A stretch of 51,477 bases of DNA, from positions 1 to 51,477 of the forward strand of contig JAPLVH010000014.1 in NCBI GenBank assembly GCA_026397205.1, in the 5' to 3' direction. Positions 2,144 to 47,604 of this stretch are shown here, one piece after another (position 1 is the stretch's first letter; the number at the start of each line of letters is the position of its first letter). Under the pieces are notes generated by a model that was given only the letters and a program-made list of their open reading frames with translations, had not been told where the DNA came from and searched no databases. This DNA is from Candidatus Berkelbacteria bacterium (GTDB lineage: Bacteria; Patescibacteriota; UBA1384; XYA2-FULL-43-10; CAINNR01). A program made the position numbers and the translations under genes.

Positions 2144-4477
2144 CTATCGATCAATTATATTCGCCATCATCAGCCGTTTTTCAACCGAGGCGATTATTTT
2201 TTTTGTTTGAATTGCGACATCTGGCGTCACCGAAACCGAAGTTGCGCCGTTTTTGACCATCAGTTCGCAAAATTCTGGATAAATTGACGGCGCCTGACCG
2301 CAAACTGACGATGTGACGCCGTGTTTTCGGCAGGTTTTGACGACATAAGAAACCGAAAGCTCGACCGCTTCGTCCCGTTCATCGAATGATTTGGCCAAAT
2401 TCTGATTATCGCGATCAACACCCAAAGTCAGCTGGGTCAAATCATTTGTGCCAAGTGAAATTCCGTCAATACCGATGGCGAGAAATTTTTCCAGAAGAAT
2501 GACATTTGACGGCACCTCAACCATCATCCAAAGTTTGAATTCGTTTGATCGTTTTAGTCCGGCGGCCTCGGCCAACTCTTTACATTTACGCATTTCCTCG
2601 ACTGTTCGGACAAAAGGAATCATCAGGTGGACATTTGTTAAATCCATTTTATCGCGGACGGTTTTTAAGGCCGCAAGCTCAAGATTAAAGACCTCCGGAT
2701 CGGTGATGTAGCGAAGGGCACCGCGCATGCCGATCATCGGGTTGTCCTCCTTGCCCTCATATTTTTCGCCGCCTTTAAGGCCGCGGTATTCGTTGGTTTT
2801 GAAATCGGTCGCCCGATAAATTACCGGCCGCGGCGCAAATGCACTGGCGATTTGAGCGATGCCCTCGGCCAATTTGTTGGTAAATTCTTCGCCCCGGCCA
2901 TCGGCGATCATCGCCCGCGGATGTTCACCAATTCCGGCGATCATAAACTCCGCCCGGAGTAGTCCAACACCATCAACCGGCAACTTCGCCGCTGCTTCCG
3001 CCGCTTCCGGTTCGGCCAAATTGAGATAAACTTTTGTTCCGGTGATTGGAATTTCCTCGACCGCCGCACTGCCAATTAATTTTTCTCCGACTGCTGACTG
3101 CTGACTGCTGACTGCCGCCTTTTCCACTGCTCCTTTGTAAACCAAACCCTTGACGCCATCAACAGTCACGACTTGGCCGGTTTTGAGTGTTGTTGTCGCC
3201 GTTCCGGTGCCAACAACGCAGGGAATTCCCAGTTCGCGAGAAACGATCGCCGCGTGGCAAGTTCGACCGCCGGTGTCGGTAATAATTCCCTTCGCCCGTT
3301 TCATCGCCGGGACAAAATCCGGCGTTGTCATTTCAGTAACCAAAATATCGCCGACCTGAATTTGATCGTTCTGCTCTTTATTGTGAATAATTTTCACCGG
3401 CCCTGACGCCTGCCCAATCGAAGCCGCCGCACCTTTCAAAATTGTTTCGGCTTTATTTTCTTCAATAGATGTCTCTATTCCTTCATTTTGATCTTTGATT
3501 TTTACATTTTGATTTTTCAGTGTCGTTATCGGCCTTGATTGAACCAGATACGGCTTGCCGGCGGCAACCGCAAATTCCATATCCTGCGGCGAATTATAAT
3601 GGGCCTCAATTTTCATTCCGATTTTCGCCAGTTCGATGATGACGGCATCGGTTAATTTTTGATCTTTTTGGTCAGCGGCCGGAATTGCGACATGTTTATC
3701 ACCCCCGCCGGCACTTTTGACAATCTTCCACGGCTGGGAGTTGATCTCTTTGGCCGTGATTTTGCCGGTTGTCTTGTCATATAAATAGCGATCCGGTGTC
3801 ACCGAGCCGGAAACAATCGCTTCGCCTAAACCGAAGCCGGCCTCGATGATCAAGGTATTGGTGTCGCCGGTCGTCGGATCAACAGTGAACATAATTCCCG
3901 ACCGATCGGACTCGACCATAATTTGAATCGGCACCGCCAAACCGATTTTTCTCTGGTCATATTTGTTGACGATGCGATAGTAAATCGCCCTGGCTTCATA
4001 AAGCGAAGCAAAACACTTCTGTGTTGCTTTGACAACTTCGTCGGCGCCATGAATGTTGAGGAATGTCGCCTGTTGGCCGGCAAACGAAGCATCCGGCAAG
4101 TCCTCAGCCGTGGCGGAGGAACGAACGGCGACATCAACCGGTCCAAGTTTTTTGTAATTTTCCTTTATTTCCGCCGCCAATCTCGGTGGTATTTTTGCCG
4201 ACAAGATATGTTTTTTTATCACCCGCGACAGGGCATTTAATTTTTTTGAGTCCTCCGGATCAACTCCTTTGAGCGCTTTGGCGATCGCCGGACCGATGCC
4301 GGTTTGCTTTAGAAAATAATAGTAGGCCTCGGCGGTGACGATAAAACCGTTCGGCACCGGGAAACCGGCCCGAGTCATTTCACCAAGATTCGCCCCCTTG
4401 CCACCGACCAACGCCGTGTCTGTGCGACCAACATCTTTAAACCAAAGAATATGCGCTTTATTTTTGCTAAATGCCAT
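2144..4477 (-). CDS. ppsA: phosphoenolpyruvate synthase (pyruvate, water dikinase)
   Basis: 777 aa with the GGKGANLGEM ATP-grasp N-terminus, the phospho-His motif GGRTCHAAIVSRELGIP, and a C-terminal PEP-utilising domain. Confidence 0.9.
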   Translation of the reverse strand: MAFSKNKAHILWFKDVGRTDTALVGGKGANLGEMTRAGFPVPNGFIVTAEAYYYFLKQTGIGPAIAKALKGVDPEDSKKLNALSRVIKKHILSAKIPPRLAAEIKENYKKLGPVDVAVRSSATAEDLPDASFAGQQATFLNIHGADEVVKATQKCFASLYEARAIYYRIVNKYDQRKIGLAVPIQIMVESDRSGIMFTVDPTTGDTNTLIIEAGFGLGEAIVSGSVTPDRYLYDKTTGKITAKEINSQPWKIVKSAGGGDKHVAIPAADQKDQKLTDAVIIELAKIGMKIEAHYNSPQDMEFAVAAGKPYLVQSRPITTLKNQNVKIKDQNEGIETSIEENKAETILKGAAASIGQASGPVKIIHNKEQNDQIQVGDILVTEMTTPDFVPAMKRAKGIITDTGGRTCHAAIVSRELGIPCVVGTGTATTTLKTGQVVTVDGVKGLVYKGAVEKAAVSSQQSAVGEKLIGSAAVEEIPITGTKVYLNLAEPEAAEAAAKLPVDGVGLLRAEFMIAGIGEHPRAMIADGRGEEFTNKLAEGIAQIASAFAPRPVIYRATDFKTNEYRGLKGGEKYEGKEDNPMIGMRGALRYITDPEVFNLELAALKTVRDKMDLTNVHLMIPFVRTVEEMRKCKELAEAAGLKRSNEFKLWMMVEVPSNVILLEKFLAIGIDGISLGTNDLTQLTLGVDRDNQNLAKSFDERDEAVELSVSYVVKTCRKHGVTSSVCGQAPSIYPEFCELMVKNGATSVSVTPDVAIQTKKIIASVEKRLMMANIIDR

Positions 4478-8222: not shown

Positions 8223-8315
8223 AATTCCTCCCTGTTAAATTAGTTTTATGCGGGTAAGTCTTAAGTCGTAAGCAAAAAACGAATTGGTTTTGCTTACGGC
8301 TTACTAGCTTACAAC

Positions 8316-9138: not shown

Positions 9139-11367
9139 TTACTCAAAATTGTCGTTGTCAATTCCGGTGGGATTCTGACCGGCTGATGACAAAATGTCTC
9201 TCGGTTTGGCGCCGTTGGCCGGACCGATAACGCCCTCCTGTTCCATCATATCAAGTAGTCGTGCCGCTCGGGCGTAGCCGACCCGCAGTCGCCGCTGGAG
9301 AAGTGACGCCGACGCCTGACCGGAATTCATTACAACTTGGACCGCTTCATCATACAAATCGTCATCAATTGCCTCTGTCCCATGACCGCTAACCGACTTA
9401 GCCGGCCGAAAAGTCAGGATCGAATCATCATATTCGGCTTCGCCCTGTTTTTTGATAAACGCGACCAACTCGTTAATCTCTTTGTCGGAGATAAAACAGC
9501 CCTGAACTCGCCGCGGTTTTGACAAACCGTTGCCGAGAAAAAGCATATCGCCGTTGCCCAAAAGTTTCTCGGCGCCGGACATATCCAAAATCGTCCGCGA
9601 GTCAACCTGGCTGGCGGTGGCAAAAGCAATTCTTGAGGTGATGTTGGCTTTAATTAAGCCGGTAAGAACATCAACACTCGGCCGCTGAGTGGCGACAATC
9701 AGGTGAAGACCGGTCGCCCGGGCCATTTGGGCGATTCGGACAATCGAGGCCTCAACTTCGTTGGCGGAGACCGCCATCAGATCGGCTAGTTCGTCAATAA
9801 TGATGACGATGTACGGCAGTTTTCCCTCCGGACCGGGCGCCGAATTGTAGGCAACAATATTTCGGCTACCCTGTTCGGCAAACATTTTATACCGCCGCTC
9901 CATTTCGTAAACCGCCCACTTTAAGGCCGAGACCGTTTTGTCAACCTCGGTGACGACCGGCGACAGAAGATGGGCGATACCGTTGTAATTGGTCAGCTCG
10001 ACCCGTTTCGGGTCAATCAAAATTAATTTCAACTCCTCCGGCGCATTGTGAAAAAGTAGTGTTGTGATGATTGAATTGATGCAGATTGATTTGCCGGAGC
10101 CAGTGGCGCCAGCGACCATCATATGCGGCATCTGCTCGAGATCTATCGCTACCGGCATGCCGGCGACATCACGACCGAGTGCTAGTGCCAATTTGCTCTT
10201 GACCGCCGCGAATTGGGGCGAGGAAACAACTTCCTTTAATGTCACTTTTGCCGGCACGACATTTGGAACCTCAATACCGACAGCGGATTTGCCGGGAATC
10301 GGCGCCTCAACGCGCAAACTTTTCGCCGCCAGCGCCAAGGCGATGTCATTTGACCGGGCGGTGATTTGATTTAATTTAACGCCCTCGTTCGGCCGAAGTG
10401 TATATTGCGTCACCGTCGGACCGACATTAACATCCTGCATTTTGACCTCAATGCCGAAATTTAAGAAGCACTTTTTGATCGTCTCGACATTTTTCGGAAT
10501 GTCACCGGACTTGGCGACATCATCGGACGATTGTAAAAGTTCGTAAGCCGGAAACTGCCAAATTCGGCCAGTCGGCGTTTTTGTCTGTGGTCGCGGGGCA
10601 GTTTCGATCACTTGAGCTTTAGGAATTTCCTCAATTTTCGGCCGACTGAAGGCGGACAATTTTTTTCTTAGGTTGGCAAAAAAACCGCCACGCGGCTGCT
10701 CCAACTCTTCGTCCTCCGCTCCGTGGCGATGAACTTTGACGCCGGCATCCAAATCTTTTTCTTTTTCTTTTTCGCTGGTGGGCGCTTCACGACCGAGAAT
10801 TTTGGAAATTGATAAATTAAAAGTAATCATAATCGAGACAATGACCGCCGCCAAAATTATCACGAACGACGGAAAAACACCAAGGGATTTGCGAAGCGGC
10901 GTCGAAACCAATAGGCCGATTACTCCGCCACCCTGACCGTTGGCAGCAACTGATTTTGCGCTTTCAATCGGAATAAAAAGATGCAAAAGTGCCGGCAAAA
11001 AGAGGAAAAAGATTGCCAGGCCAAAAAATTTCGCTAACTTTACGCCGCCTTTCGGCGGAAAGAGGATAATCGCACCGAGCCAGAAAAGAATAATCGGGAA
11101 AAGATAGCCGACGATAAAACCGAACATTTTGTAGTTCAAAATTTTCAGCGCCTCACCCATTCGGCCGGCCGAACCGAAAATGCCGAGAAAAATGATGACG
11201 GCAATAATCATCAAAACAACGGCAAAAATTTCCCGCCAAACTTCCGGCCCGAGCCCCAAAGTGATGTCAAAAACAAAATCCCCCCAGTCGTTTTCCCGCT
11301 GGTACCACTTCGGCCTTTTTTGCTTATGTTTTGGATACTTGCGTCGTCGACCCACAGGCTCCTCCAA
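9139..11367 (-). CDS. ftsK: DNA translocase FtsK/SpoIIIE
   Basis: N-terminal TM helices, the GATGSGKS P-loop, and a C-terminal gamma-like winged helix (LLQRRLRVGYARAARLLD). Confidence 0.95.
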   Translation of the reverse strand: MEEPVGRRRKYPKHKQKRPKWYQRENDWGDFVFDITLGLGPEVWREIFAVVLMIIAVIIFLGIFGSAGRMGEALKILNYKMFGFIVGYLFPIILFWLGAIILFPPKGGVKLAKFFGLAIFFLFLPALLHLFIPIESAKSVAANGQGGGVIGLLVSTPLRKSLGVFPSFVIILAAVIVSIMITFNLSISKILGREAPTSEKEKEKDLDAGVKVHRHGAEDEELEQPRGGFFANLRKKLSAFSRPKIEEIPKAQVIETAPRPQTKTPTGRIWQFPAYELLQSSDDVAKSGDIPKNVETIKKCFLNFGIEVKMQDVNVGPTVTQYTLRPNEGVKLNQITARSNDIALALAAKSLRVEAPIPGKSAVGIEVPNVVPAKVTLKEVVSSPQFAAVKSKLALALGRDVAGMPVAIDLEQMPHMMVAGATGSGKSICINSIITTLLFHNAPEELKLILIDPKRVELTNYNGIAHLLSPVVTEVDKTVSALKWAVYEMERRYKMFAEQGSRNIVAYNSAPGPEGKLPYIVIIIDELADLMAVSANEVEASIVRIAQMARATGLHLIVATQRPSVDVLTGLIKANITSRIAFATASQVDSRTILDMSGAEKLLGNGDMLFLGNGLSKPRRVQGCFISDKEINELVAFIKKQGEAEYDDSILTFRPAKSVSGHGTEAIDDDLYDEAVQVVMNSGQASASLLQRRLRVGYARAARLLDMMEQEGVIGPANGAKPRDILSSAGQNPTGIDNDNFE

Positions 11368-11380
11368 AATTGAAATTCTA

Positions 11381-11460
11381 ACACGGATTTCATCACACAG
11401 ATAGGCACGGATTGGAAGGAATTAATCCGTGTAAATCCGTGTAGTAGATCCGTGTTCGAA
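11381..11460. repeat. cluster of six ATCCGTG/CACGGAT words in both orientations (dispersed family; second cluster at 34187..34223)
   Basis: acacggattt, gcacggattgg, aatccgtgta, aatccgtgtag and gatccgtgttcgaa. The 34187 cluster repeats ATCCGTGTTCGAA exactly. Confidence 0.7.
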
Positions 11461-11506
11461 CTTCCTTTTATTCTTCCTACTATATAGTATATCACTTCCC
11501 TGATTG

Positions 11507-11535
11507 TTGACAAATTATTCCAGCTTTGATATTCT
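11507..11535 (+). promoter_or_regulatory. sigma70-like promoter TTGACA-17-TATTCT (module A; homologous to 12967..12995)
   Basis: Read directly. The -35 overlaps the TTGTCA -35 of the divergent ftsK promoter. Confidence 0.6.
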
Positions 11536-11567
11536 GAAAATGCGGTTATCAACGGAGGTGACCAGTG

Positions 11568-11753
11568 ATGTGGATTGATTCGGCAGAATTACCATTTTTT
11601 TCTACAGAAGAAGCTCTCGTCGAACATTTGATCGCTAATCATCCAGTCGAAAATGCCAATGTAATTATTCAAGCGTGTATCGAATATGGAATGTTTGAAC
11701 ATTCAGCCGAAGAATGGCTAGAAATCGTTTACAAAATTCAAACAGAATTCTAA
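11568..11753 (+). CDS. small acidic hypothetical protein (61 aa), orphan cassette A
   Basis: GGAGG lies 9 nt before the ATG. Terminator at 11761..11784. Confidence 0.55.
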   Translation: MWIDSAELPFFSTEEALVEHLIANHPVENANVIIQACIEYGMFEHSAEEWLEIVYKIQTEF

Positions 11754-11760
11754 CCCACCA

Positions 11761-11784
11761 GCGACCACATCGGCCGCTTTTTTT
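11761..11784 (+). terminator. intrinsic terminator GCGACC-ACATC-GGCCGC + T7 (homologous to 13707..13730)
   Basis: Hairpin plus T7. Same ACATCGGCC core as the terminator of cassette B. Confidence 0.7.
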
Positions 11785-11866
11785 ATCAGCTAATGCTTTC
11801 AGCGAAAACCAAGAAACGTTCGCTAAAATTAAATAACGCAAAACGATCAACCAAGAGGTGAAGTCG

Positions 11867-12022
11867 ATGAGAGTTTACAATGTCGCAATGGAAATTATCG
11901 GCGACAATCCTGATCATGATGATAGTTTTGTCATCCGAAAATTGCAACAGCAATTTAAAATTTCCGAAAGCGAGCTTGGAAAAATCGTCAAAAAAATCCG
12001 CGATTTAATTCAAGTTCTCTAA
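11867..12022 (+). CDS. small hypothetical protein (51 aa)
   Basis: Not in the ORF track. AGAGGTGAAG lies before the ATG. Translation: MRVYNVAMEIIGDNPDHDDSFVIRKLQQQFKISESELGKIVKKIRDLIQVL. Followed by the hairpin CACCGCC-AGCC-GGCGGTG plus a T-rich tract. Confidence 0.45.
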   Translation: MRVYNVAMEIIGDNPDHDDSFVIRKLQQQFKISESELGKIVKKIRDLIQVL

Positions 12023-12074
12023 CCCTTTACCCAAACACCGCCAGCCGGCGGTGTTTATTTTATCGAGGTTTAGT

Positions 12075-12728
12075 TCATAATTTCTGTTTTCGCAAATACT
12101 CATCAAACAATTTTTGGAAAAAATCGGCAATTTCTTTTTTTGAATATTTTCTGGTCAAAAGTGGTTTTAGGTAATCAAAATTTTCCAAACTTTTTGTCAG
12201 GCGGGAAATTAAAATCGCCGGATCAATTTGCTCCTCAAATTTTTCTTTGACACCGGAAATCAATTTCTCGAATGTAAACTTTTTATCCTGCAAAATAATA
12301 AACAGATCAAAAGCATCTTTAACTTCGCTTCGCTGATAGGCCAACAAAGTTTTAGAAATTGCGATGTCAAGAAGCGATTCGACCTTGAAGCCGGAAACTT
12401 CCATCACTTTTCCGATTTTCGGAAACGGATAATAGACAAATTCAAGTTTTAATTGATCGCTGTCGGATAATTCGAAAACATACTGGAAGCGATTCATTCG
12501 GCTGAAACTTTTTTTGTTTTTCGCACCCAGAGATTTTTTAATCTGGTTTGACAAAGTTGTCAAAACATCAACCGGTGGCAAATCAAACAAAATGATGTCG
12601 ATGTCCTCCGACTTCCGGTGATGCAAATAAATTTCTGACAACGCCGTTCCGCCACCCCAAACCGCAATATTTTCAATTGGCGATTTGAAAATTTCTTTAA
12701 GCACCAGTTTTTGCTCTTTTGTTAGCAT
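12075..12728 (-). CDS. nucleotidyltransferase AbiEii/AbiGii-like toxin family protein
   Basis: 217 aa with GGGTALSEIYLHHRKSEDIDI, the typical DUF1814/AbiEii N-terminal motif. Confidence 0.7.
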   Translation of the reverse strand: MLTKEQKLVLKEIFKSPIENIAVWGGGTALSEIYLHHRKSEDIDIILFDLPPVDVLTTLSNQIKKSLGAKNKKSFSRMNRFQYVFELSDSDQLKLEFVYYPFPKIGKVMEVSGFKVESLLDIAISKTLLAYQRSEVKDAFDLFIILQDKKFTFEKLISGVKEKFEEQIDPAILISRLTKSLENFDYLKPLLTRKYSKKEIADFFQKLFDEYLRKQKL

Positions 12729-12948
12729 AGAATTTTTTGATCATTGATTTTAATGTCGGATCGATTTCCAAATCGGCAAGATTTTTTTCCAGAATCTTGG
12801 TATTAAGGGATTTGTAATCGCCGAAGTTTATTTTTCGCGCCAAATACCAGCGCAAAACCGCCGGATTTTTCAAATTCAGATTTTTTGTTTCATAGTCCCA
12901 GATAAATTTTTTGTCAACTTTCATACTCAAATTATAGCAGAAATCCAT
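12697..12948 (-). CDS. short partner of the AbiEii-like gene (putative antitoxin-like protein); start may be the ATG at 12924
   Basis: It overlaps the AbiEii-like start by 32 nt. TATAAT lies 6 nt before the 12924 ATG, so the mRNA may be leaderless. FIWDYE...WYLARKINFGDYKSL recalls short proteins paired with AbiEii-type NTases, from memory only. Confidence 0.5.
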   Translation of the reverse strand: MDFCYNLSMKVDKKFIWDYETKNLNLKNPAVLRWYLARKINFGDYKSLNTKILEKNLADLEIDPTLKSMIKKFYANKRAKTGA

Positions 12949-12966
12949 GGAAAATGATACGCCCCG

Positions 12967-12995
12967 TTAACAAATACTTCCGGCTTTGGTATTCT
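12967..12995 (+). promoter_or_regulatory. promoter-like TTAACA-17-TATTCT (module B)
   Basis: 37 of 45 aligned positions are identical to module A, counting from the base before the -35 (11506 vs 12966). Confidence 0.5.
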
Positions 12996-13032
12996 CTAAA
13001 TGCAGTTATCGCGCTTGAGAGGTGAAGAAGAA

Positions 13033-13698
13033 ATGCTCGGATATGAACACTTCTATACGTACAGTGAACGCTGGAAACCTCTTTTTGAAGAATTTCCAGA
13101 ACTCAATCTCGAACAAGGAGTTTGCTGGTTTGCTTGCCTTTCAATGCTGTTAAATTCCGTGTCGACAAAACCGACGCAAGATTTGTACGACGCAGCCAAA
13201 CTCCTCGCCGCAAAAGTATTTCCCGAAGGGCTAGAAAATCTGCTCAATCTGCATAAAACAATGATGTTAATACGGCCGACAGCAAATGAACAGACACAAA
13301 TTGTCGTCGATTATCTATGCCAGTTCCACACCGGGATTAAAGCCGTTCTTTACATGATGCCCTTGATGAAAATCGATTGCTGGTGTTTCAGGAAAGATCA
13401 AAACCAATCGGATTTATTAGATTTTATGCTAGACCAATGTTCTGGCCGCTACAATTTGTTGCTAACATTCCAAGTCAACAGCGATGATGACACTTGCGCT
13501 AGCGGCGGCCATGTCATCTATTTTGATTCAAGCAACGCTCAAGGTCAGCAAATTACGTTGTCTGACCCCAATTATTCTGATCCGCTGTTATTCGACAGAC
13601 AAAGATTCACTAAGTGGCTAAATGAGGAAAACCCATACACAAGAGGTAGGAGAATAAAATTTGGCGGTTATGTTTACGGCTTCAAAATCGATAAATAG
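13033..13698 (+). CDS. papain-fold (C39-like) cysteine peptidase candidate, orphan cassette B
   Basis: Candidate triad: QGVCWFACLSML (Cys), GGHVIYFDS (His) and LSDPN (Asp). The 13033 ATG follows GAGAGGTGAAG. The listed 13000 start lies inside the conserved leader. Confidence 0.6.
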   Translation: MLGYEHFYTYSERWKPLFEEFPELNLEQGVCWFACLSMLLNSVSTKPTQDLYDAAKLLAAKVFPEGLENLLNLHKTMMLIRPTANEQTQIVVDYLCQFHTGIKAVLYMMPLMKIDCWCFRKDQNQSDLLDFMLDQCSGRYNLLLTFQVNSDDDTCASGGHVIYFDSSNAQGQQITLSDPNYSDPLLFDRQRFTKWLNEENPYTRGRRIKFGGYVYGFKIDK

Positions 13699-13706
13699 TT
13701 CACGCT

Positions 13707-13730
13707 GCGGCCACATCGGCCACTTTTTTT
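13707..13730 (+). terminator. intrinsic terminator GCGGCC-ACATC-GGCCAC + T7
   Basis: Hairpin plus T7, homologous to 11761..11784. Confidence 0.7.
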
Positions 13731-13751
13731 ATAGCGACACTGATAAATCAA

Positions 13752-13775
13752 GATTGCCACGTTCCTCGCAATGAC
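13752..13775. repeat. half copy of the GTCATTGCGAG palindromic element family
   Basis: gattgccacgttcctcgcaatgac matches the right arm of the elements at 48805 and 49255. Confidence 0.7.
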
Positions 13776-13953
13776 AGCCAGAACACAAAACCGCCCAATT
13801 TCTTGGTGCGGTTTTTTGGTGTCATACTGAATCCGTTCGACAATCTCAAGACAGGTTTTTCAGGATCTTATAAACTTCTGGGATTCCGAAATAAATTCGG
13901 AATGACAACCGTGTTTTGCTTACGGCTTACTGGCTTACAAGCTTATGACTATT

Positions 13954-13980
13954 TTACACCTCAATCACCACCGGAATCAC
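13954..13980 (-). other. relic copy of the last 8 codons plus stop of rnj (VIPVVIEV*)
   Basis: gtg att ccg gtg gtg att gag gtg taa here versus gtc ata cca gtt gtc ata gaa gtt taa at 14057..14083. All 8 sense codons differ only at the third position. Confidence 0.5.
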
Positions 13981-14056
13981 CCCACCGTCGCTCAAATTCG
14001 TTTCGAGGACTACGACCTCGCAAACGAATGTTCGCTTTGGCGGGCAGGCATCGGCC

Positions 14057-15859
14057 TTAAACTTCTATGACAACTGGTATGACCATGGGGCGACGCTCCG
14101 TCTCTTTGTAGAGAAAATCGCCGAGCTCTTCGCGGATTTTGGTTTTGATTAGCGCCCAATCGCCGCGAGCTTTTTTGTCTGTTGAGTGCTGGGCAAAAAG
14201 TCGCTTGATCTCCGCTCTGGCTTTGTGGACCAAATTTTCATTTTCCCGCATATAAATGAAACCGCGAGAAATGATGTCCGGTGATGTTACAACTTGTCCG
14301 GTTTGATGATTAACAGTGACGATGATGACAAAAATTCCGTCAGCCGCCATCGCTTTGCGGTCGCGAAGAACAATATTGCCGACATCGCCAACACCAAGCC
14401 CGTCAACCATAACATAACTCGCCGGCACCCGCTTGTTGGTGACCGAACCTTTTCCGCCGACAAACTCAATAATTTGGCCGTTGTCGGAAACCAAAATGTT
14501 TTCTTCCGGAATTCCGACATCAGCGGCAATTTGGGCGTGAATCATTAATTTGTGCCGCTCGCCGTGAATCGGAATAAAAAATTCCGGTTTGATCAAACCG
14601 ATCATCAACTTCAAGTCCTCCTGATAGGCGTGACCGGAAGTATGAACATCAAACAATTTTTGGTAGATGACGCGGGCGCCTTCGCGAAAAAGATTGTCCA
14701 TAACTTCAGAAACCGAGCGCTCGTTACCGGGAATTGGTGACGATGAAAGGATGACCGTGTCACCTTTTTTAATTTTAATTTGTCGATGCTCACCGGCGGC
14801 AATTCGAGTTAGCGCCGACCGCTCCTCACCCTGCGAACCGGTACAAACGATTGTCACCCGCTCGTTCGGGTATTTGTCAATGTCGGCAACATCAATCATT
14901 GTGTCGGGCGGAATGATCAAAGCTTTCAAATTTGCCGCGACCTCGACATTGGCGATCATCGAACGACCGGAAAATGCCACTTTGCGATTCATTTTTTTTG
15001 AAACATTGATAATTTGTTGGATACGAGAAATCAGCGAAGCAAAAGTCGCCATAATGACGCGACCTTTGGCATTTTCAACCAATTTGAAAAGTGAATCCTC
15101 AACCTCCTTTTCGGAGATTGTGTGACCGGGTTTTTCGGCGTTTGTTGAATCGGAGAAGAGCGCTTTGACCCCCTGGCCGCCAAGTTCGGCCAATTTTGAG
15201 AAGTCGGTCGGTTTGCCGTCGGCCGGCGTATGATCAAATTTCCAGTCGGTGGCGTAAACCAAAATTCCCTCCGGCGTCGTGATCGAAAGTCCGAAACTAT
15301 CCGGAACATTGTGGTTTAGGCGAAAAGTTTCGATTTTGAAAACGCCGAGCTGAAGAATCTCCTCGCCGGGAATTATCGTCGAAATTTTGACTCGATTTTC
15401 CATCCCAAACTCCTCGAGCCGTTTTTTAATCAGCCCAACGGTCATCGGCGCCGAGTAAATTTGCGGGCTGCCGATTTTGTCGTAAAGATAAGGAATCGCG
15501 CCGGTGTGGTCCAAATGTCCGTGAGTGATGATGACGCCGCGGATTTTCTCCTTGTTTTCCGCCAAATAGCTGACATCAGGAATGACATAATCAATTCCCG
15601 GCATATCTTCGTTCGGAAACATAAAACCCATGTCAATGACGATAATGTCATTGCCATATTCAATTATTGACATATTTTTGCCAACCTCTTCCAGTCCGCC
15701 AAGGGGAATGAAACGAAGTGAAGGTTTGCGAAATGCATTTCCGGCCGCGTCTTTCGCCTGTTGGCGATTAATCGCACCGGCATTCGGCGTTAAATTGCCG
15801 AAAGTTTTTGACAGGTCGGTCTTTTGCGGACTTCGCTGTCGTGTGTGTTGTGGAGTCAT
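14057..15859 (-). CDS. rnj: ribonuclease J
   Basis: 600 aa with the metallo-beta-lactamase HGHLDHTG motif, a beta-CASP region and an RNase J C-terminal domain. Confidence 0.92.
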   Translation of the reverse strand: MTPQHTRQRSPQKTDLSKTFGNLTPNAGAINRQQAKDAAGNAFRKPSLRFIPLGGLEEVGKNMSIIEYGNDIIVIDMGFMFPNEDMPGIDYVIPDVSYLAENKEKIRGVIITHGHLDHTGAIPYLYDKIGSPQIYSAPMTVGLIKKRLEEFGMENRVKISTIIPGEEILQLGVFKIETFRLNHNVPDSFGLSITTPEGILVYATDWKFDHTPADGKPTDFSKLAELGGQGVKALFSDSTNAEKPGHTISEKEVEDSLFKLVENAKGRVIMATFASLISRIQQIINVSKKMNRKVAFSGRSMIANVEVAANLKALIIPPDTMIDVADIDKYPNERVTIVCTGSQGEERSALTRIAAGEHRQIKIKKGDTVILSSSPIPGNERSVSEVMDNLFREGARVIYQKLFDVHTSGHAYQEDLKLMIGLIKPEFFIPIHGERHKLMIHAQIAADVGIPEENILVSDNGQIIEFVGGKGSVTNKRVPASYVMVDGLGVGDVGNIVLRDRKAMAADGIFVIIVTVNHQTGQVVTSPDIISRGFIYMRENENLVHKARAEIKRLFAQHSTDKKARGDWALIKTKIREELGDFLYKETERRPMVIPVVIEV

Positions 15860-18379: not shown

Positions 18380-18526
18380 ATGCCAAAAACCGCCCAATTT
18401 CTTGAACGGTTTTCCAAAATAGTTCTCACTTCGTTCGAACAATAACTTCTGACTTTGCTTACGGCTTACGAGCTTATTGGCTCCGACGTTTCAGTCGGAG
18501 TCCCGACATTCAAAAATAGTCGGGAC

Positions 18527-20744: not shown

Positions 20745-20811
20745 TTACTTTCCTCTTGCCTAAGACACTTAAATTACTTAAGCAACCTAAGTGACTTAGG
20801 AGTTATTAAAT

Positions 20812-21331: not shown

Positions 21332-21787
21332 TTATTTGGGAGCTCTAAGATCGGGATCGATAATAAAAATGTTGTGGTCAAAACCAATTGCTTCCAGAGT
21401 TTCCGTGGTATATTTTCCCCAGAATTTGTCCCACTGATCAAAATTTACATCATGATTCTCCATCGACCTAAGGCAATATTGTGCCCTTTCTTCATTGAGA
21501 AAAAGCCCAACAATCGGCGAAGTTTTGCCTCCGTGAAAATTGGTGCTACACATCCCAGCCGGGGCAATTCTGAAACCAGAAATAATGTCAGGAAAATAGC
21601 GAATCAATCCGTAATTGGTTATCCCAATTTTTGTTCCGCGATTGAGACGCATTCCAACCGGAATTTCTTCGTTAAAAAGACCAGCAATTTTTTCCACAAT
21701 CGGTTCATTCGGATCATCAGAATTTTCAGTAGCGCGATAAAGCGACTTTCCGGTTGTGACAGCAAAAAACTCGATCTTGCCAGCCAT
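21332..21787 (-). CDS. hypothetical protein, orphan cassette (start MAGKIEFF)
   Basis: GAGGAGG lies 8 nt before the ATG at 21787. Shares promoter/leader module P1. The terminator AGCTCCC..GGGGGCT + T7 overlaps the stop. Confidence 0.6.
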   Translation of the reverse strand: MAGKIEFFAVTTGKSLYRATENSDDPNEPIVEKIAGLFNEEIPVGMRLNRGTKIGITNYGLIRYFPDIISGFRIAPAGMCSTNFHGGKTSPIVGLFLNEERAQYCLRSMENHDVNFDQWDKFWGKYTTETLEAIGFDHNIFIIDPDLRAPK

Positions 21788-21860
21788 TTCGTCAACCTCC
21801 TCGGCGGATTGGTGCGACACATACTATATAGTATATAACAAATTCTGGTTTGAAATGCAA
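21788..21860 (-). promoter_or_regulatory. promoter/leader module P1 (TTGCAT-17-TATATA ... GTCGCACCAATCCGCCGAGGAGGTTGA)
   Basis: Near-identical blocks are shared with 22624..22689. Confidence 0.6.
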
Positions 21861-21903
21861 GCGTTATAAAAAAACCGGCACAAAACGCGCCGGCGGGATG
21901 ATA

Positions 21904-22623
21904 TTATTTTCTTAAAGTTCTTAGCGCGAAACTCATATCTGCACCTTTTCGACAAAGAATTTCAGACGCCTGTTTGACGTCATCGTTATCAAGGTCGATG
22001 AAATAACTAAGCGCTGATTTTCCAAATCTGTCTGCTTGGTCAATTCTAGCACCGTTTTCCAAAAGTAAATCAAGGATTTCTGGATTTCCGGTTCGAATTG
22101 CATGTTGCGTCGCGAAGAAAATTGGTTGGTGATCGGGACCAATTCTGGCACCTTTAGCAATTAACAGTTTTGTGATTTCAATATGGCCGAAAGCAATGGC
22201 CAAATGCAAAGCATCGTTTATGGCCAATGAATCGTATGAAAATTGTAGTAGAAAATCAACAACTTCCAAATGTCCATTTCGCGACGATTTTTGTAGTGGC
22301 GTCTCGCCAATACCGTCGCAAATATTAGGGCTGACATTTCTGAAAATGTGCCATTTTACTCTTCCCAAGTTTCCTTCACTGGCGGCGATGTGAATTTTGT
22401 GCGTTTTCTTTGCCATCAATTTATCAACGCTTTTGTACTCTGGAAATTCTGCGTCCAAATATGTCATTGACGCGCCCGGCATTGGATAAGTTGTCCCGGC
22501 TTCGAGCTTCACCATTTTTGTATTGTGGAGAATATTTGCTCGCCTCGATGATTCATCTGGACCAAATTGCCAATCATAAAACGAAAAAGCTTTCGGCATC
22601 GGTGCCACTGCTCCATCCGACAT
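21904..22623 (-). CDS. ankyrin-repeat protein
   Basis: Repeats of the G.TPL..A...GH.E.V..LL type (GETPLQKSSRNGHLEVVDFLL, ALHLAIAFGHIEITKLLI, NPEILDLLLENGARID). Confidence 0.75.
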   Translation of the reverse strand: MSDGAVAPMPKAFSFYDWQFGPDESSRRANILHNTKMVKLEAGTTYPMPGASMTYLDAEFPEYKSVDKLMAKKTHKIHIAASEGNLGRVKWHIFRNVSPNICDGIGETPLQKSSRNGHLEVVDFLLQFSYDSLAINDALHLAIAFGHIEITKLLIAKGARIGPDHQPIFFATQHAIRTGNPEILDLLLENGARIDQADRFGKSALSYFIDLDNDDVKQASEILCRKGADMSFALRTLRK

Positions 22624-22689
22624 GATTCAACCTCCTCGGCGGATTGATGCGACTAAATAATATATATCAATTTCTGTTTTGAAATGCAA
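22624..22689 (-). promoter_or_regulatory. promoter/leader module P2 (TTGCAT-17-TATATA ... GTCGCATCAATCCGCCGAGGAGGTTGA)
   Basis: Paralogous to module P1. Confidence 0.6.
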
Positions 22690-27797: not shown

Positions 27798-27847
27798 TTT
27801 GCAATTTTTAAGTCACTTAAGTTTCTTAAGATACTTATTTAAGTTTA

Positions 27848-29306: not shown

Positions 29307-30605
29307 TTAAACTTTCTTTGTTTCGTCCCAATTGTCACCGATTCCAACTTCAACTTCTGTTGGCACCGAAAGTTTGACGACATTTTCCATCGTCTCTTTC
29401 ATAATTTTTGCGACACTCTCCGCATCTTTTACCGGCGCTTCGACAATAACCTCATCATGAACAGTCAAAATAATTTTTACTCCACCATTTTGACTTTTGA
29501 TTTTTGATTTTTGATTTAAAACTTGCATTTGATCCGCCAGGCGGATCAAGGCAAGTTTCAGTATCTCCGCCGCTGTTCCCTGCACCGGCGTGTTTATCGC
29601 CATTCTCTGTGCCGATTCCGATTTTATTCGGTCGGCCGAATTTATCTCCGGCAGTTTCCGCTGAAATCCAAACAGCGTTTCGACATAACCTAATTTTTTG
29701 GCTTGTGTAATCTGCTCCTCGCAATATTTTTTAATGCCGCCGTGAACGGCAAAATAGCGGAAAATATATTCCGCCGCCGATTCGCGGGCGATGCCCAAAG
29801 TTTGCGACAAACCGTATGGGCTGATGCCGTAAATGACTCCAAAGTTGACGGTTTTCGCCAGTCGCCGCTGATCGTTGGTGATTTTTTCAATCGGCACGCG
29901 AAATAATTCTGATGCTGTTCGCGAATGAATGTCAACGCCAGAGCTGAATGCTTCAACCATCGCCTTGTCGCCAGACAAACAAGCAACGACTCGGAGTTCG
30001 ATTTGCGAATAATCGGCCGAAATTAATTTACAATTTTTTTCGGCAATAAAAGCTCGGCGAATTTCCGGTCCGAAATCGCCTTTGATTGGGATATTTTGCA
30101 AATTCGGATTTGCCGATGTCAGCCGGCCGGTTCGGGTGTCGGTACCGAAATGGGTGTGAAGCCGAAAATTTTCGTCAACGATTTTCGGTAGCGGCTCTAA
30201 ATATGTTGACACTAATTTTGAAAGTTCGCGATATTCCAAAATTTTGCCGATGATCGGATTTCCGCCACGGAGTTTTTCCAGCTCCGACGCGCCAGTGGAA
30301 AATCCCGACTTTGTTCGCTTGAGTTCGCCGGTTGGCAATTTCATTTTGGTGAATAATATTTTCGCCAATTGCGTCGGCGACGCGACATTGAATTCCTCAC
30401 CAGCATTTTTCTGAATTTCCTTCCTTAACTTTTCACTTTTAACTTTTAACTTTTCACTAAGTCGCTTAAGCGACTTGACATCAACTTTTATTCCGACATC
30501 CTCGATCAACCTTAAAACCGGCGCCAATTTCTTGTCAATTTCCTCCGATTTAATTCTCGGAATTTTACAACCCAATTTTTCCGCCCGCGCTAAAATATTT
30601 TTCAT
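29307..30605 (-). CDS. polA: DNA polymerase I, polymerase domain only (no 3'-5' exonuclease domain)
   Basis: 432 aa with the family A motifs SADYSQIELRV, RRLAKTVNFGVIYG and VHDEVIVE. Confidence 0.9.
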   Translation of the reverse strand: MKNILARAEKLGCKIPRIKSEEIDKKLAPVLRLIEDVGIKVDVKSLKRLSEKLKVKSEKLRKEIQKNAGEEFNVASPTQLAKILFTKMKLPTGELKRTKSGFSTGASELEKLRGGNPIIGKILEYRELSKLVSTYLEPLPKIVDENFRLHTHFGTDTRTGRLTSANPNLQNIPIKGDFGPEIRRAFIAEKNCKLISADYSQIELRVVACLSGDKAMVEAFSSGVDIHSRTASELFRVPIEKITNDQRRLAKTVNFGVIYGISPYGLSQTLGIARESAAEYIFRYFAVHGGIKKYCEEQITQAKKLGYVETLFGFQRKLPEINSADRIKSESAQRMAINTPVQGTAAEILKLALIRLADQMQVLNQKSKIKSQNGGVKIILTVHDEVIVEAPVKDAESVAKIMKETMENVVKLSVPTEVEVGIGDNWDETKKV

Positions 30606-30639
30606 AATTATTCTAAACGGCTTAAGTTTCTTAAGATAT

Positions 30640-31686
30640 TTATAAAAGTTTTAGTTGTTCGTCTTTCTTTGGAATTTCTGATTTTGAATTTGTTTGTGAT
30701 TTGCCCACAGGGTCACTTCGTAGATTTCTTGTGATTTGCGATTTTTCGCCCTCAAATCTCCGGAGGAGCGATTGAAATCCCAACTCCTCAAAAAGTTCCG
30801 TCAGTTTGATTTTATCATACTCGCCGAAACGACATTTTTCCAGATCAAAATCAATCGGCACATCACGATAAATCGTCGCCAACTTCTGCGACATAAAAGC
30901 CTGATCACGATTCTCAATCAATAAATTTAATATTCTCGGTTTTATTTCTTTTTGATTTTCATCTTTGTCATTTTGATCTTTAATATTTGATTTTTGATCT
31001 ATATACGCATATAACTTTTCAAGCGAATCAAACTTCTGAATTAAATCTGTCGCCGTTTTACTGCCGATTCCCGGAACACCGGGAATATTGTCCGAAGCAT
31101 CGCCGGCCAGCGCTTTTAGATCAATAAAATCAGCCGGATCCAGATTATACTCTCGTTTGATTGTGTCGTGATCAACAATTTGGAGTTGACTCAAACCCTT
31201 GCGCAAACTATAAACTTTAACATTGCCATTTATCAGCTGATAAATATCCTTATCCCCGCTTACTATATATATGTCAATTCCGCTATTTTTCACTTTTAAT
31301 TTTTCACTTTTAATTTTCTCGGCAATTGTGCCGAGAATATCATCGGCCTCAAAAGTTTCCTTTTCGTAAATCGGAATTCCCATCGTCTCAACGATTTGTT
31401 TGACTCGGGGAATTTGATCGTAAAGTTCCTGATCGGCCTTAACTCGCGTCGCTTTGTAATCGGCGAACTCTTTGTGGCGAAAAGTCGGCCCGGCCAAATC
31501 GAACGAGCAAGCGATAAATTCCGGCTTCAAATCCTCCAAAACTTTAATCAGCGTGGTTGTAAAACCGTAAGTCGCGTTCGTCGGCTCGCCAGCACGCGTC
31601 GTCATCGTTTTCGGCAAAGCGTGATACGCCCGATGAATTATCGCATTACCATCAATCAAGACCAGTTTTTGATTTTCCTCTGTCAT
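30640..31686 (-). CDS. 5'-3' exonuclease (Pol I N-terminal FEN-like domain) as a separate gene
   Basis: LIDGNAIIHRAYHAL, SGDKDIYQL and an H3TH region (GDASDNIPGVPGIGSKTA). The C-terminal tail is repeat-derived (RSDPVGKSQTNSKSEIPKK). Confidence 0.9.
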   Translation of the reverse strand: MTEENQKLVLIDGNAIIHRAYHALPKTMTTRAGEPTNATYGFTTTLIKVLEDLKPEFIACSFDLAGPTFRHKEFADYKATRVKADQELYDQIPRVKQIVETMGIPIYEKETFEADDILGTIAEKIKSEKLKVKNSGIDIYIVSGDKDIYQLINGNVKVYSLRKGLSQLQIVDHDTIKREYNLDPADFIDLKALAGDASDNIPGVPGIGSKTATDLIQKFDSLEKLYAYIDQKSNIKDQNDKDENQKEIKPRILNLLIENRDQAFMSQKLATIYRDVPIDFDLEKCRFGEYDKIKLTELFEELGFQSLLRRFEGEKSQITRNLRSDPVGKSQTNSKSEIPKKDEQLKLL

Positions 31687-38206: not shown

Positions 38207-38315
38207 AAATCAAATATTAAAAATTAAAATGATAGATCAAAAAGTTTTAAATCCCGGCACGGAGTGCCGACCAACATTTTGACTTTTTATTTTTGATTTT
38301 TGATATACTTGGTTT

Positions 38316-42660: not shown

Positions 42661-42811
42661 TTGACTCCTTTCAGTCGTCCCCTTACTAAATTACAAATAA
42701 ATCCACGAAATTACGAAAATACAAATAAAATCTTATTTCGAATATTTGTAATTTCGTAAGGGACGTGTATTTTTTATTGTAAAGCAAACTTTACATTCTT
42801 GTCAAGGATTT

Positions 42812-42837
42812 GTCATTGCGAGCGAAGCGCGGCAATC
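42812..42837. repeat. left half of a GTCATTGCGAG-family element
   Basis: gtcattgcgagcgaagcgcggcaatc. Confidence 0.7.
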
Positions 42838-42899
42838 TTTTCAGAAACAAAAAAGGACATCTGCCCTCATTGATTTTATCTTACCACATTTTTTCAAAT

Positions 42900-45765: not shown

Positions 45766-47604
45766 CTATCCAGCTGGTGGCATAGCCGCCACTGGATCCG
45801 CCGGCGGTCCAACCTGCCACTGCTCCGGCAAGGCAACATAATGCGAAAGAAAATCGGTTGACTGTAAGATTGTGCCACTCAAAATAACCTGGTAGTGAAA
45901 TTTCGCCGAAGCACCTTGATGGGCGTGAGAAATTAAATTTCGCGTTCCCGCCGGCAGTGTCGGATCCAAGGTCTCAACCGGCGATGGCGGTTCGACATAA
46001 TCAAAACCGCTTGCCGCCCCGATCGTTATCTGCCGATCATCTTTAGTGCCATAAAATTCAAAAGTTAATTTTGTCCCGACGATGACCGACTGAATGAAAA
46101 TGTAACTCGAGTAGTTGTTGACAAATTTGAAATCCGGCGACGGATCGTAAATTGTTGCGTCCATGCCGATCGGCGGCTCATAATAGGAAACGCGATAAGA
46201 GTGATTTTGCCGCTCGGTAATTTTCATTCCGGCGTTAAGCGCCGCCCGAAAAAGTGTCGTCGAAACCTGACAGAGTCCGCCGCCGTAATCCGGCACGGTC
46301 TTGTTGTCTTTGATCACCAGCTCCGGCAAATATCCGGTTGAGGCGTTGATTTTGCCCAAATGCCCAAGTGTCGAAAACTCCTCGCCCGGTTTGAGCAAAG
46401 TTCCATTGATCGCTGTCGCGCCAACGCCGATGTTGTGAATCCGATTTGCCGGCGACTTGACAAAATTTGTCGTGCCACTGGCGACCAATTCGGTCAAGCC
46501 GTAAGATTTCAATTTTGTTGAATCAATTTCCGGCGCAATTTGATCAACTTTTAGAGTAATTAATGGTAGTTGTGTTTGATCAATCCGGTCGAGAATCGCC
46601 GCCGAAATTGTTGCTGTCGCCGCCTCACGATCCAACTTGGCGCCATTTTGCGACTGGTTGGAAACAGCAACCTGGCCGTTAACGACGGTCAAAACGGCGT
46701 TGCCGGCTGGTGTGTCAACCGCGGCGGCAAAACCGGCGACCTGCTTTTGGACTTGGTCGGGCAGAATATAAATCTCCAGCTCCTTGCCCTTCGGTCGCGA
46801 ACCGATCAACCCGGCAATCGAATCAACATCAAGTGTGAAATTTTTGCTGTTGGCGGCCAATGCCAAATTTCCCCCAGCCAAAATCCGGTTGGCGTCGACC
46901 AAACTTTTGTTGGCATTCTCCTCGGTAATCTGCGGCGGATATTTTTCGGTCTTAAAATCAACTTCCGCCATTTTGATTTTTGATCTTTGATCTTTGATTT
47001 CGTCAATCAAGTTTCCTTGATTGACGCGATTCCCTTCCTGCTTCTCGGTTGCTAATGTAAATTTCCCGCCACCGGCATACGCAAGCGAAAAATCCTTTTC
47101 CGGAATATCAATTCCGGCGGCAATCTCGGCAATTTTCGTCGCCAACTTATCGGCGCTAATGGAATAATCGGCGTCAACTTGATATTTGAACAACAAAGTT
47201 TTTGCCTGCTGATAAAAACTTATCAGCGGATTTTTCGCTCGGCCGACAGCAAAAACCATGTTGGCGGTTTCTTCAACATTATATTTCAAATCAATGTCGG
47301 AATTTTTTATTGTAAATGGCTTCGAATCGCCGGACTCCGGTTGATATTTTAGATTGATGTCAGCGGCTTCGGCTAACGATAATATCGGCGTCAAGATTTC
47401 TGTAACTTGTTCGTGACTTTTACCGCCGACATTTGCCGAGCCGACATAAATATTTCGATAAGTCGTTTTGCCGTAAGCCAAGGAATAAATTCCCAAAATT
47501 ATCAAAATAAAAACCAAAAAACTACCGACAAAAATTGTCGGCCATTTGATTTTCTTCCACAGGCGAATCCTTTTGGACTCTTGTTTTTCCTTTTTCTGCG
47601 CCAC
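45766..47604 (-). CDS. VanW-family protein with an N-terminal membrane anchor
   Basis: YGGGLCQVSTTLFRAALNAG...RQNHSYRVSYY is the VanW core. Confidence 0.8.
   Translation of the reverse strand: MAQKKEKQESKRIRLWKKIKWPTIFVGSFLVFILIILGIYSLAYGKTTYRNIYVGSANVGGKSHEQVTEILTPILSLAEAADINLKYQPESGDSKPFTIKNSDIDLKYNVEETANMVFAVGRAKNPLISFYQQAKTLLFKYQVDADYSISADKLATKIAEIAAGIDIPEKDFSLAYAGGGKFTLATEKQEGNRVNQGNLIDEIKDQRSKIKMAEVDFKTEKYPPQITEENANKSLVDANRILAGGNLALAANSKNFTLDVDSIAGLIGSRPKGKELEIYILPDQVQKQVAGFAAAVDTPAGNAVLTVVNGQVAVSNQSQNGAKLDREAATATISAAILDRIDQTQLPLITLKVDQIAPEIDSTKLKSYGLTELVASGTTNFVKSPANRIHNIGVGATAINGTLLKPGEEFSTLGHLGKINASTGYLPELVIKDNKTVPDYGGGLCQVSTTLFRAALNAGMKITERQNHSYRVSYYEPPIGMDATIYDPSPDFKFVNNYSSYIFIQSVIVGTKLTFEFYGTKDDRQITIGAASGFDYVEPPSPVETLDPTLPAGTRNLISHAHQGASAKFHYQVILSGTILQSTDFLSHYVALPEQWQVGPPADPVAAMPPAG

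Follow-up and report, generated by a model that had tools for sequence, protein, structure and literature searches.

Two unrelated orphan genes at a variable site in the genome of a Candidatus Berkelbacteria bacterium, one of the tiny-celled Patescibacteria (CPR), are each framed by copies of the same predicted promoter/leader module and the same predicted intrinsic-terminator module. Both genes are located between the core genes ftsK and rnj on the contig JAPLVH010000014.1, whose 51,477 nucleotides (nt) were analysed as a whole and are referred to here as the window. The first gene, orf61, encodes an acidic protein of 61 amino acids (aa), and the second, orf221, encodes a predicted papain-like hydrolase of 221 aa. 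The order of features is ftsK, P1-orf61-T1, a second small gene (orf51), an abiEii-type gene with a 75-aa gene, P2-orf221-T2, a bidirectional terminator and rnj, where P1 and P2 are the promoter/leader modules and T1 and T2 are the terminator modules. The locus is a well-documented local instance of regulatory-module reuse. On balance, we favor a recent duplication, confined to this locus, of the promoter and terminator modules, which enclose different genes. The reuse of regulatory DNA is genuine and local; it is no evidence of a widespread gene-cassette system, and the system is not integron-like.

The promoter/leader modules

P1 occupies positions 11506-11550 of the plus strand and was delimited by its identity with P2, a promoter scan and the bounds of the homology. 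It features a -35 element TTGACA (11507-11512), a TG dinucleotide (11527-11528) and a -10 element TATTCT (11530-11535), which is followed by about 15 nt of initial transcript. P2 occupies positions 12966-13010 of the same strand, with a -35 element TTAACA (12967-12972) and a -10 element TATTCT (12990-12995). Both modules lie at -62 to -18 relative to the start codon and have a sigma-70-type architecture, in which TTGACA or TTAACA is followed by a 17-nt spacer and an extended -10 element, TG-n-TATTCT. The promoter scan gave P1 a score of 10/12 with the TG present, and promoter activity is predicted for both modules from these consensus features. A first-pass annotation of the sequence had reported that the two modules match at 37 of 45 positions (82%), and both the coordinates and the count are correct. 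A degenerate 45-nt consensus matches only P1 and P2 in the whole window, where dinucleotide-preserving shuffles expect 0.00 matches. The similarity exceeds a common promoter consensus, because P1 and P2 are identical at 24 of the 31 positions that remain once the -35, -10 and TG positions are removed. The spacer is conserved at 13 of 17 positions and the first ~15 transcribed nt at 12 of 15, and a segment-by-segment test gave the P core z=14 against shuffles.

This conservation could also reflect selection. A single regulator would then bind both 5' modules at an operator across the spacer and +1 and control orf61 and orf221 together, which might encode, for instance, a small partner protein and its peptidase. 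Spacers and early transcribed positions are normally unconstrained, so that their conservation here and the sharp edges of the modules are consistent with such an operator. In structure, orf221 is best matched by staphopains, whose genes are paired with genes for small inhibitors, the staphostatins. However, an operator leaves the terminator copies unexplained, and the operator itself would still have to arise by copying. No dyad or direct repeat common to P1 and P2 was seen by eye, no repeat tool having been run on the 45 nt, and relatives carry an orf61-like gene or an orf221-like gene without the other. A shared operator is a highly doubtful explanation. A conserved leader structure, which the first-pass annotation had put forward for testing, did not emerge either: the predicted folds of the two leaders are weak and unlike each other, and no Rfam family matched in the region.

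The leaders also feature a conserved ATG (in AAATGC) roughly at the predicted transcription start (within 11540-11578 and 13000-13035). The ATG of P1 begins a 12-codon open reading frame (ORF) that runs over the orf61 start. The ATG of P2 is in frame with orf221, and for this reason gene callers give 232 aa for orf221. The conserved GGTTATC of P1 could pair with the GGTGACC of the Shine-Dalgarno (SD) region, and the corresponding pairing in P2 is weaker.

The terminator modules and the module boundaries

T1 (11761-11786, plus strand) consists of the hairpin GCGACC-ACATC-GGCCGC, which contains one A.C mismatch, followed by T7. T2 (13707-13732, plus strand) consists of GCGGCC-ACATC-GGCCAC, with one C.A mismatch, likewise followed by T7. 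Both are predicted to be active as terminators on the basis of the hairpin and the T7 run. The hairpins are weak (-6.6 kcal/mol for T1), and each carries a single G-to-A change, at different sites, relative to the perfect stem GCGGCC-ACATC-GGCCGC. That the two terminators are homologous, as had been proposed, is borne out by identity at 24 of 26 positions (92%). The 26-nt consensus matches only these two sites in the whole window, the expectation from dinucleotide-preserving shuffles is again 0.00, and the T core has z=13 against shuffles.

The similarity could also come from a chance likeness between generic promoter and terminator consensus sequences, or from a chimeric assembly. Many terminators of these genomes have a GC-rich stem and end in TTTTTTTAT, which explains the apparent likeness of T1 and T2 to the terminators of relatives. 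By contrast, with +2/-3 scoring, the ungapped alignment of T1 and T2 (24 matches, 2 mismatches) scores 42 by hand, whereas the highest score of T1 or T2 against real terminators is 31 among the best 25 of 234, this null being 234 real terminators of related genomes. The 24 of 31 matching non-consensus positions in P1 and P2 and the shuffle expectations of 0.00 also argue against chance. Additionally, nine Logan contigs from eight sequencing runs, which jointly cover 10423-14036, are all 100% identical to the window, so that the arrangement is not an assembly artefact. Runs that contain this strain include SRR20698650, SRR20698651, ERR15302165, ERR15302191, ERR15302196, ERR15302204 and ERR15302223. 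Chance or artefact is refuted and is the least probable of the explanations considered.

The modules are discrete and sharply bounded units, since all six segments that flank them scored at the level of shuffles. They comprise 40 nt on the 5' side of P, the interval between P and the start codon, the first 60 nt and the last 45 nt of the coding sequence (CDS), the interval between the stop codon and T, and 60 nt beyond T. The sequence shows no target-site duplications at the module edges. It was also considered whether P and T could be the two inverted ends of a single element, and no such arrangement is seen in the sequence.

The genes between the modules

orf61 (11568-11753, plus strand) is preceded by the SD sequence GGAGGTGA at 11554-11561. 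It matches no family in Pfam, NCBIfam, PHROG or PADLOC, and a k-mer search found no homologue. Weak syntenic homologues with 29-37% aa identity adjoin ftsK in the related loci L008 and L009.

orf221 (13033-13698, plus strand) has the SD sequence AGGTGA at 13020-13025, correctly spaced like that of orf61, and its start is supported by alignment with the homologue P0002. One homologue at 52% identity was found among 5.8 billion proteins and an exhaustive profile search returned three more with E about 1e-4; orf221 is a near-orphan. Cys31 (in the motif G-x-C-W), His160 and Asp178 do not vary in a five-sequence alignment. No Pfam family matches orf221 itself, and its distant homologue P0006 scores above the threshold of Pfam Peptidase_C39_2. 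An AlphaFold model reached a pLDDT of 72.8; an earlier model, from a two-sequence alignment, reached 46 and was unusable. The top Foldseek matches are staphopain (E=3.6e-5), a phytochelatin-synthase-like protein and AvrPphB, together with other clan-CA folds, with TM-scores that are modest at just 0.35-0.55. These results support the prediction that orf221 is a papain-like hydrolase of clan CA, C39-like, with its catalytic residues in papain order, and the first-pass annotation had already called the gene papain-like.

The lack of similarity between the two genes, which had been noted by eye, was found at both the DNA and the protein level. The proteins have no BLASTP match at E<=100, and Smith-Waterman scores for DNA and protein are at or below the shuffle means. 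A match in the final codons of the two CDSs, GTTTAC...TTCAAA, was considered and is not significant against shuffles. The similarity of the flanks does not extend into the ORFs. With flanks that are 82-92% identical, the CDSs between them cannot be paralogues that diverged past detection, and simple divergent paralogy of orf61 and orf221 is ruled out.

The ORF list and the terminator scan revealed one more small gene on the plus strand, orf51 (11867-12022). This 51-aa orphan gene has a strong terminator of its own at 12033-12056, with a hairpin of -18.4 kcal/mol. It was found in 4 other assemblies and matches no family in any of the four libraries named for orf61.

The AbiE pair

The minus strand between the two units carries an abiEii-type nucleotidyltransferase toxin gene (12075-12728). 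The first-pass annotation had called it AbiEii-like, and this call agrees with a match to Pfam PF08843 (E=1.3e-13, 51.9 bits against a cutoff of 22.5) and with matches to 14 PADLOC AbiEii models, which assign the protein to AbiEii/DUF1814. Upstream of it is a 75-aa gene (12697-12924, minus strand), a putative antitoxin gene, which overlaps abiEii by 32 nt and is also called at 75 aa in the Logan contigs. In AbiE systems, which are type IV toxin-antitoxin systems, the upstream AbiEi antitoxin carries an N-terminal winged-helix domain. The 75-aa gene matches no AbiEi model and no other family in Pfam, PADLOC or the other libraries. A homologous pair of a small gene and AbiEii occurs in the related locus L048. 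The extended -10 element TGCTATAAT, read from the sequence at 12925-12948 on the minus strand, lies just 7 nt before the ATG (12924) of the 75-aa gene, and this short distance suggests that its mRNA is probably leaderless. Just upstream of TGCTATAAT is a perfect palindrome, TCCATGGA, a candidate site for autoregulation. An AbiEi operator within P2 was considered and dropped, since the abiE promoter TGCTATAAT and the palindrome TCCATGGA fall outside the conserved P core.

The ftsK-rnj hotspot

The left border of the hotspot is ftsK (9139-11367, minus strand; Pfam FtsK_SpoIIIE, FtsK_alpha, FtsK_gamma and 4TM domains), and the right border is rnj (14057-15859, minus strand; Pfam RNase_J_b_CASP and RNase_J_C), which encodes RNase J. 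RNase J is 83-87% identical in aa to that of the closest relatives, which are labelled Berkelbacteria, Saccharibacteria or simply Patescibacteria, and this places the window in Patescibacteria. In relatives, ftsK homologues with 75-77% aa identity adjoin rnj. The two genes are neighbours in 23 related species, where the gap between them ranges from 54 to 3282 bp and compares with 2689 bp in the window. In three close relatives the gap holds nothing but a terminator and a promoter. The gaps of the remaining relatives hold differing, mostly orphan and mutually unrelated ORFs, often with deviant guanine-plus-cytosine (GC) content. The conserved borders and the variable, mostly unrelated cargo identify the ftsK-rnj site as an insertion hotspot. 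The island in the window has a GC fraction of 0.32-0.44, against 0.45-0.56 in its flanks.

Relatives also indicate the relative ages of genes and modules. Some carry an orf61-like gene without orf221 and others an orf221-like gene without orf61; the orf221 homologue in L001 adjoins rnj. The promoters of the orf61-like genes (L008, L009) and of the orf221-like gene (L001) are unlike P1 and P2, and the module similarity is thus younger than the residence of the genes at this locus.

The whole array could instead have been imported from a phage, a plasmid or another mobile donor in which the modules were already repeated, so that the P and T similarity would predate its arrival. The low GC of the island relative to the flanking core genes agrees with import, an AbiE toxin-antitoxin pair and orphan genes are typical mobile cargo, and promoter-early stem-loop (PeSL) elements show that repeated regulatory modules exist in phages (PMC2839356, PMC4122927). 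However, the five island proteins have no PHROG match, no P, T or PA pattern was found in IMG/VR (PA being a second promoter module described below), and the presence of orf61-like and orf221-like genes at the same sides of the hotspot in different relatives points to long residence. A Pfam scan of the island proteins and the 10 annotated neighbouring proteins (4.5-18.3 kb, within ~7 kb) found no integrase, transposase, other recombinase or phage gene among those neighbours. We consider import of the array unlikely.

Several observations concern the rnj side of the hotspot. About 85 nt before the true rnj stop (within 13945-14056) is a second, relic copy of the final ~25 nt of rnj, TTACACCTCAATCACCACCGGAATCACCCC. 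Its reverse complement encodes ...VIPVVIEV*, and a short GC-rich insert separates the relic from the rnj end. The duplicate of the rnj end and the CCCCACTTCGCTAAAGCTACGCGGGGCAGG insert recur in several related species (L010, L013, L016, L020, L023), and the arrangement looks like a small element whose insertion at the 3' end of rnj restores that end. The bidirectional terminator between T2 and rnj (13787-13820) contains AAAACCGCCCAATTTCTTGGTGCGGTTTT (13787-13815), and a near-identical copy lies downstream of the PNPase gene (18386-18413). Both copies are followed by a GCTTACGGCTTAC module, which indicates that 3'-end modules are reused too. An inverted-repeat element that resembles a miniature inverted-repeat transposable element, GATTGC...CGTTCCTCGCAATGAC, has copies or half-copies at 13750-13776, 48831-48878, 49278-49325 and 42811-42839 (minus strand). 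One half-copy is directly 3' of T2, and full copies are present in the L001 and L010 hotspots.

Origin of the arrangement

The preferred explanation is local duplication. The space between ftsK and rnj is a hotspot that gathers small accessory genes, and in the lineage of the window it contains two predicted autonomous monocistronic units on the plus strand. Each starts with a copy of one predicted extended -10 sigma-70 promoter with ~15 nt of initial transcript and ends in a copy of one predicted short intrinsic terminator. These signals would insulate the units from the minus-strand core genes, against which they are predicted to run, and from the intervening abiE pair. The copies of P and of T are young paralogues, and the genes inside are unrelated and seemingly older at the locus, which suggests that the frame was duplicated locally. 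In one version a whole P-gene-T unit would be copied and its transcribed body then replaced. In a second, formally equivalent version, an allelic P-X-T would be stacked beside a resident P-Y-T by recombination in the short common modules. Recombination would be RecA-type or illegitimate, without a dedicated recombinase; recA is present in the window and counts in favor of local duplication, and recA and recX lie 4-7 kb away. The direction of duplication, its mechanism and any role of the modules as recombination arms are inferred.

Recombination between the modules would also have consequences for the array. The product of a T1xT2 deletion would be orf61 and a hybrid T followed by AGCGACACTG, and that of a P1xP2 deletion would be the ftsK side, a hybrid P and orf221. 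Either deletion would take the abiE pair, and the array may, as a matter of speculation, be stabilised in this way.

An active site-specific cassette system, integron- or transposon-like, would assign recombination to dedicated sites, with the T hairpin or P as the site. The hairpin sequence is conserved with single mismatches, and the cargo consists of unrelated orphan genes with a toxin-antitoxin pair between the repeats. Superintegron arrays also carry toxin-antitoxin pairs between repeats. However, the ten annotated neighbours include no recombinase, the 17-nt hairpin is far shorter than an attC site, and the units have their own promoters and number just two. The absence of visible target-site duplications and of any Rfam or known-element match also opposes this explanation, which is largely refuted and very improbable. 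The first-pass annotation had suggested cassette exchange, or duplication followed by cargo replacement; the latter is the best reading of the data, and an exchange system is unsupported.

Several points weigh against local duplication. There are just two copies of each module, and nhmmer found no third copy of P or T in the window (next best E=0.12 and 0.36). Strict core patterns had no match in IMG/VR (six scans) or in the GTDB representatives. No deletion, swap, empty frame or alternative neighbour is present among the nine Logan contigs, so that the presence/absence polymorphism for which the first-pass annotation had proposed a comparison of strains was not seen. When real terminators serve as the null, P1/P2 and T1/T2 show no demonstrable kinship with the promoters and terminators of relatives beyond generic features, and no relative is near enough to polarise the duplication. 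At 45 and 26 nt, the arms of homology are short for an exchange that depends on RecA, and the promoter and terminator roles are predictions.

Searches for further copies

Copies of the modules with other cargo, which a cassette-exchange system would require, were found neither in the window nor in the GTDB representatives, IMG/VR or JGI metagenomes. The genome of the window is absent from these three collections, its own copies were not returned, and only cross-species copies are detectable in them, which makes the search low in power. The one core-pattern match in the JGI metagenomes is a chance match inside a glycosyltransferase CDS. Additionally, nhmmer profiles of the modules found nothing further in 85 loci.

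Possible cross-species families of the modules were also considered. Comparison of P1 and P2 with upstream regions of relatives gave p=0.03-0.99, and only P1 against L001 fell below 0.05 (a 10-nt TTGTTGACAA match, p=0.026). A P family based on the resemblance of P1 to the L008 promoter was dropped as not significant. A T family with L007, L008 and L010 (AGCGRCC...GGYCGCT) had p<0.001 by mononucleotide shuffles, yet it falls at the 95th-99th percentile among the 234 real terminators, and it was rejected. Terminators resembling DNA-uptake sequences were rejected as well, the other terminators of the window having unrelated stems.

Two independent contigs in the Logan set end near module edges. 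The contig that was fetched twice, as L086 and L088, ends at 11787, the first base after T1, and L090 ends at 11545, within the final 6 nt of P1. An assembly graph with k=31 would not be broken by exact repeats as short as these. The two ends may reflect noise in coverage or point to a variant junction.

Other reused modules in the window and the clade

A second pair of promoter/leader modules is present in the window. PA (22627-22689, minus strand) lies upstream of an ankyrin-repeat gene (21904-22623; ankyrin Pfam matches), and its copy PB (21792-21860, minus strand) lies upstream of an unrelated 151-aa orphan gene (21332-21787). The two are identical at 57 of 63 aligned positions (90%), with a 6-nt indel, from the -35 element through the SD sequence, and are located at about -69 to -6 relative to the start. 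The terminator of the ankyrin gene (about 21865-21900) directly abuts PB. The ankyrin-repeat protein and the 151-aa orphan are not paralogous. This island of 1.9 kb is lineage-specific and separates rpsO from a DHH-family gene, whereas relatives have these two genes side by side.

Relatives show similar cases. L007 and L010 have in common a 37-nt terminator, 97% identical, that immediately follows unrelated ORFs; the rest of the hotspot DNA around it is unalignable between these loci, and their core genes are 71-82% identical in DNA. In L008 and L010, 61 nt of the ftsK-proximal promoter region are 85% identical before unrelated ORFs. These two observations and the PA/PB pair, which are independent of one another, support a milder, general version of module reuse, for which the cross-species hotspot is also indirect support. 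Short intergenic repeats are frequent in this clade: a survey of 161 kb of intergenic DNA from 69 related loci revealed 34 intergenic repeat pairs above threshold that are not of low complexity. Among the top-scoring pairs, roughly one in three is a direct repeat with 300-1,000 nt between its copies. Four of the six regions that were inspected (L061, L069, L025, L075) feature a single clear ORF of 77-144 aa between the repeat copies, and the L061 pair occupies the rnj-proximal position, as in the window.

Two further kinds of intergenic repeat were observed. Conserved modules of TAAG-type motifs (reverse complement TTGTAAGCCAGTAAGCCGTAAGC) with a spacing of ~8 nt lie just 3' of minus-strand genes at 8287-8314, 13913-13940 and 18452-18479, and also at 27816-27846, 30621-30651 and 20767-20798. 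The spacing places stop codons in all three frames, and related genomes contain many comparable modules of TACGAA or TAAG repeats. Phased, A-tract-like TTTTGA/TTTTCA repeats (families D1-D4) are found in many intergenic regions upstream of minus-strand genes, at 3485-3530, 29473-29518, 30949-30994, 38271-38307 and 46965-47001.

Relation to known systems

The distinctive feature of the locus is classified as paired reuse of a promoter and a terminator around orphan genes in chromosomal hotspots of one Patescibacteria lineage. The closest features are found in the PeSL cassettes of T4-type phages, in which a promoter and a stem-loop flank ORFans in hyperplastic regions (PMC2839356, PMC4122927). 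According to the proposal made for them, PeSLs mediate shuffling by offering short patches of homology at which genes can be inserted, deleted or replaced (Arbiol et al. 2010, PMC2839356; Comeau et al. 2014, PMC4122927). As in PeSLs, sigma-70-type promoters and stem-loop terminators frame unrelated ORFans in a hypervariable region between core blocks, and the units are transcriptionally insulated, which in the present case is predicted. The PA/PB pair also has a composite terminator-promoter layout like that of PeSLs, with the ankyrin terminator abutting PB. However, P and T stand at opposite ends of the ORF and are not composite, T1 and P2 being 1.2 kb apart. There are two copies in 51 kb and no weaker ones, as opposed to dozens for PeSLs, and they are found on a Patescibacteria chromosome (ftsK, rnj, recA, rpsO) and not in a phage. 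PeSLs are also marked by insertions, deletions or replacements between close relatives, with breakpoints inside the elements, and by mini-circles. Neither indel polymorphism nor a mini-circle was observed here among the nine contigs, all identical to the window, and the relatives, whose hotspot content differs, are too distant for their modules to be aligned. The module sequences are unrelated to the PeSL consensus. A full Patescibacteria counterpart of phage PeSL shuffling would use portable P and T modules both as expression signals and as homology arms. Orphan genes would be stacked, swapped and lost at hotspots with DNA that arrives by competence, and a toxin-antitoxin pair between direct repeats would guard the array against deletion. 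We consider this scheme quite unlikely.

Putative mobile promoters number more than 4000 families, most of them pairs, and precede unrelated genes (PMC3575422). In the screen of Matus-Garcia, Nijveen and van Passel (2012), as summarised in PMC3575422, the threshold was an identity of 80% or more across 50 nt or more within -150 to -50. The window agrees with this concept in having similar upstream sequences before non-homologous genes of one genome, mostly as pairs and with no known mobile element, and the downstream CDSs are non-paralogous for both P1/P2 and PA/PB. However, P1/P2 are too short and too proximal for the threshold (82% over 45 nt at -62 to -18) and include the -10 element and the leader. 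PA/PB also fall outside it, and the concept fits both pairs. Reuse of the terminator along with the promoter is not treated in that work.

Two other systems offer partial parallels. Morons of lambdoid prophages are autonomous genes that have been inserted between core genes and bring a promoter and a terminator of their own. The window resembles them in its single accessory genes between conserved genes, each equipped with its own promoter and terminator and predicted to be transcribed independently, and in its deviant base composition, whereas morons are defined in phages and normally lack mutually homologous promoter and terminator sequences. Integron cassettes are likewise unrelated, often orphan genes, sometimes toxin-antitoxin genes, that are bounded by short conserved structured repeats. 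In contrast to integrons, no intI tyrosine-recombinase integrase was detected by Pfam among the island proteins and the 10 neighbouring ones. attC sites are imperfect inverted repeats of about 55-140 nt as compared with a 17-nt hairpin and a T run here, and each of only two units has its own consensus promoter where integron cassettes are promoterless.

Implications

Bacteria with very small genomes must express acquired genes without disturbing tightly packed core operons, and a reused promoter/terminator frame is a cheap route to this. Reused frames also create short repeats that are able to drive later gene gain and loss. The window provides two clean examples of module reuse, both inside hotspots that are variable across the clade. 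If the same modules were found around many genes, a mechanism documented only for T4-type phages would extend to an uncultivated bacterial phylum, and it would help to explain the turnover of orphan genes in these bacteria.

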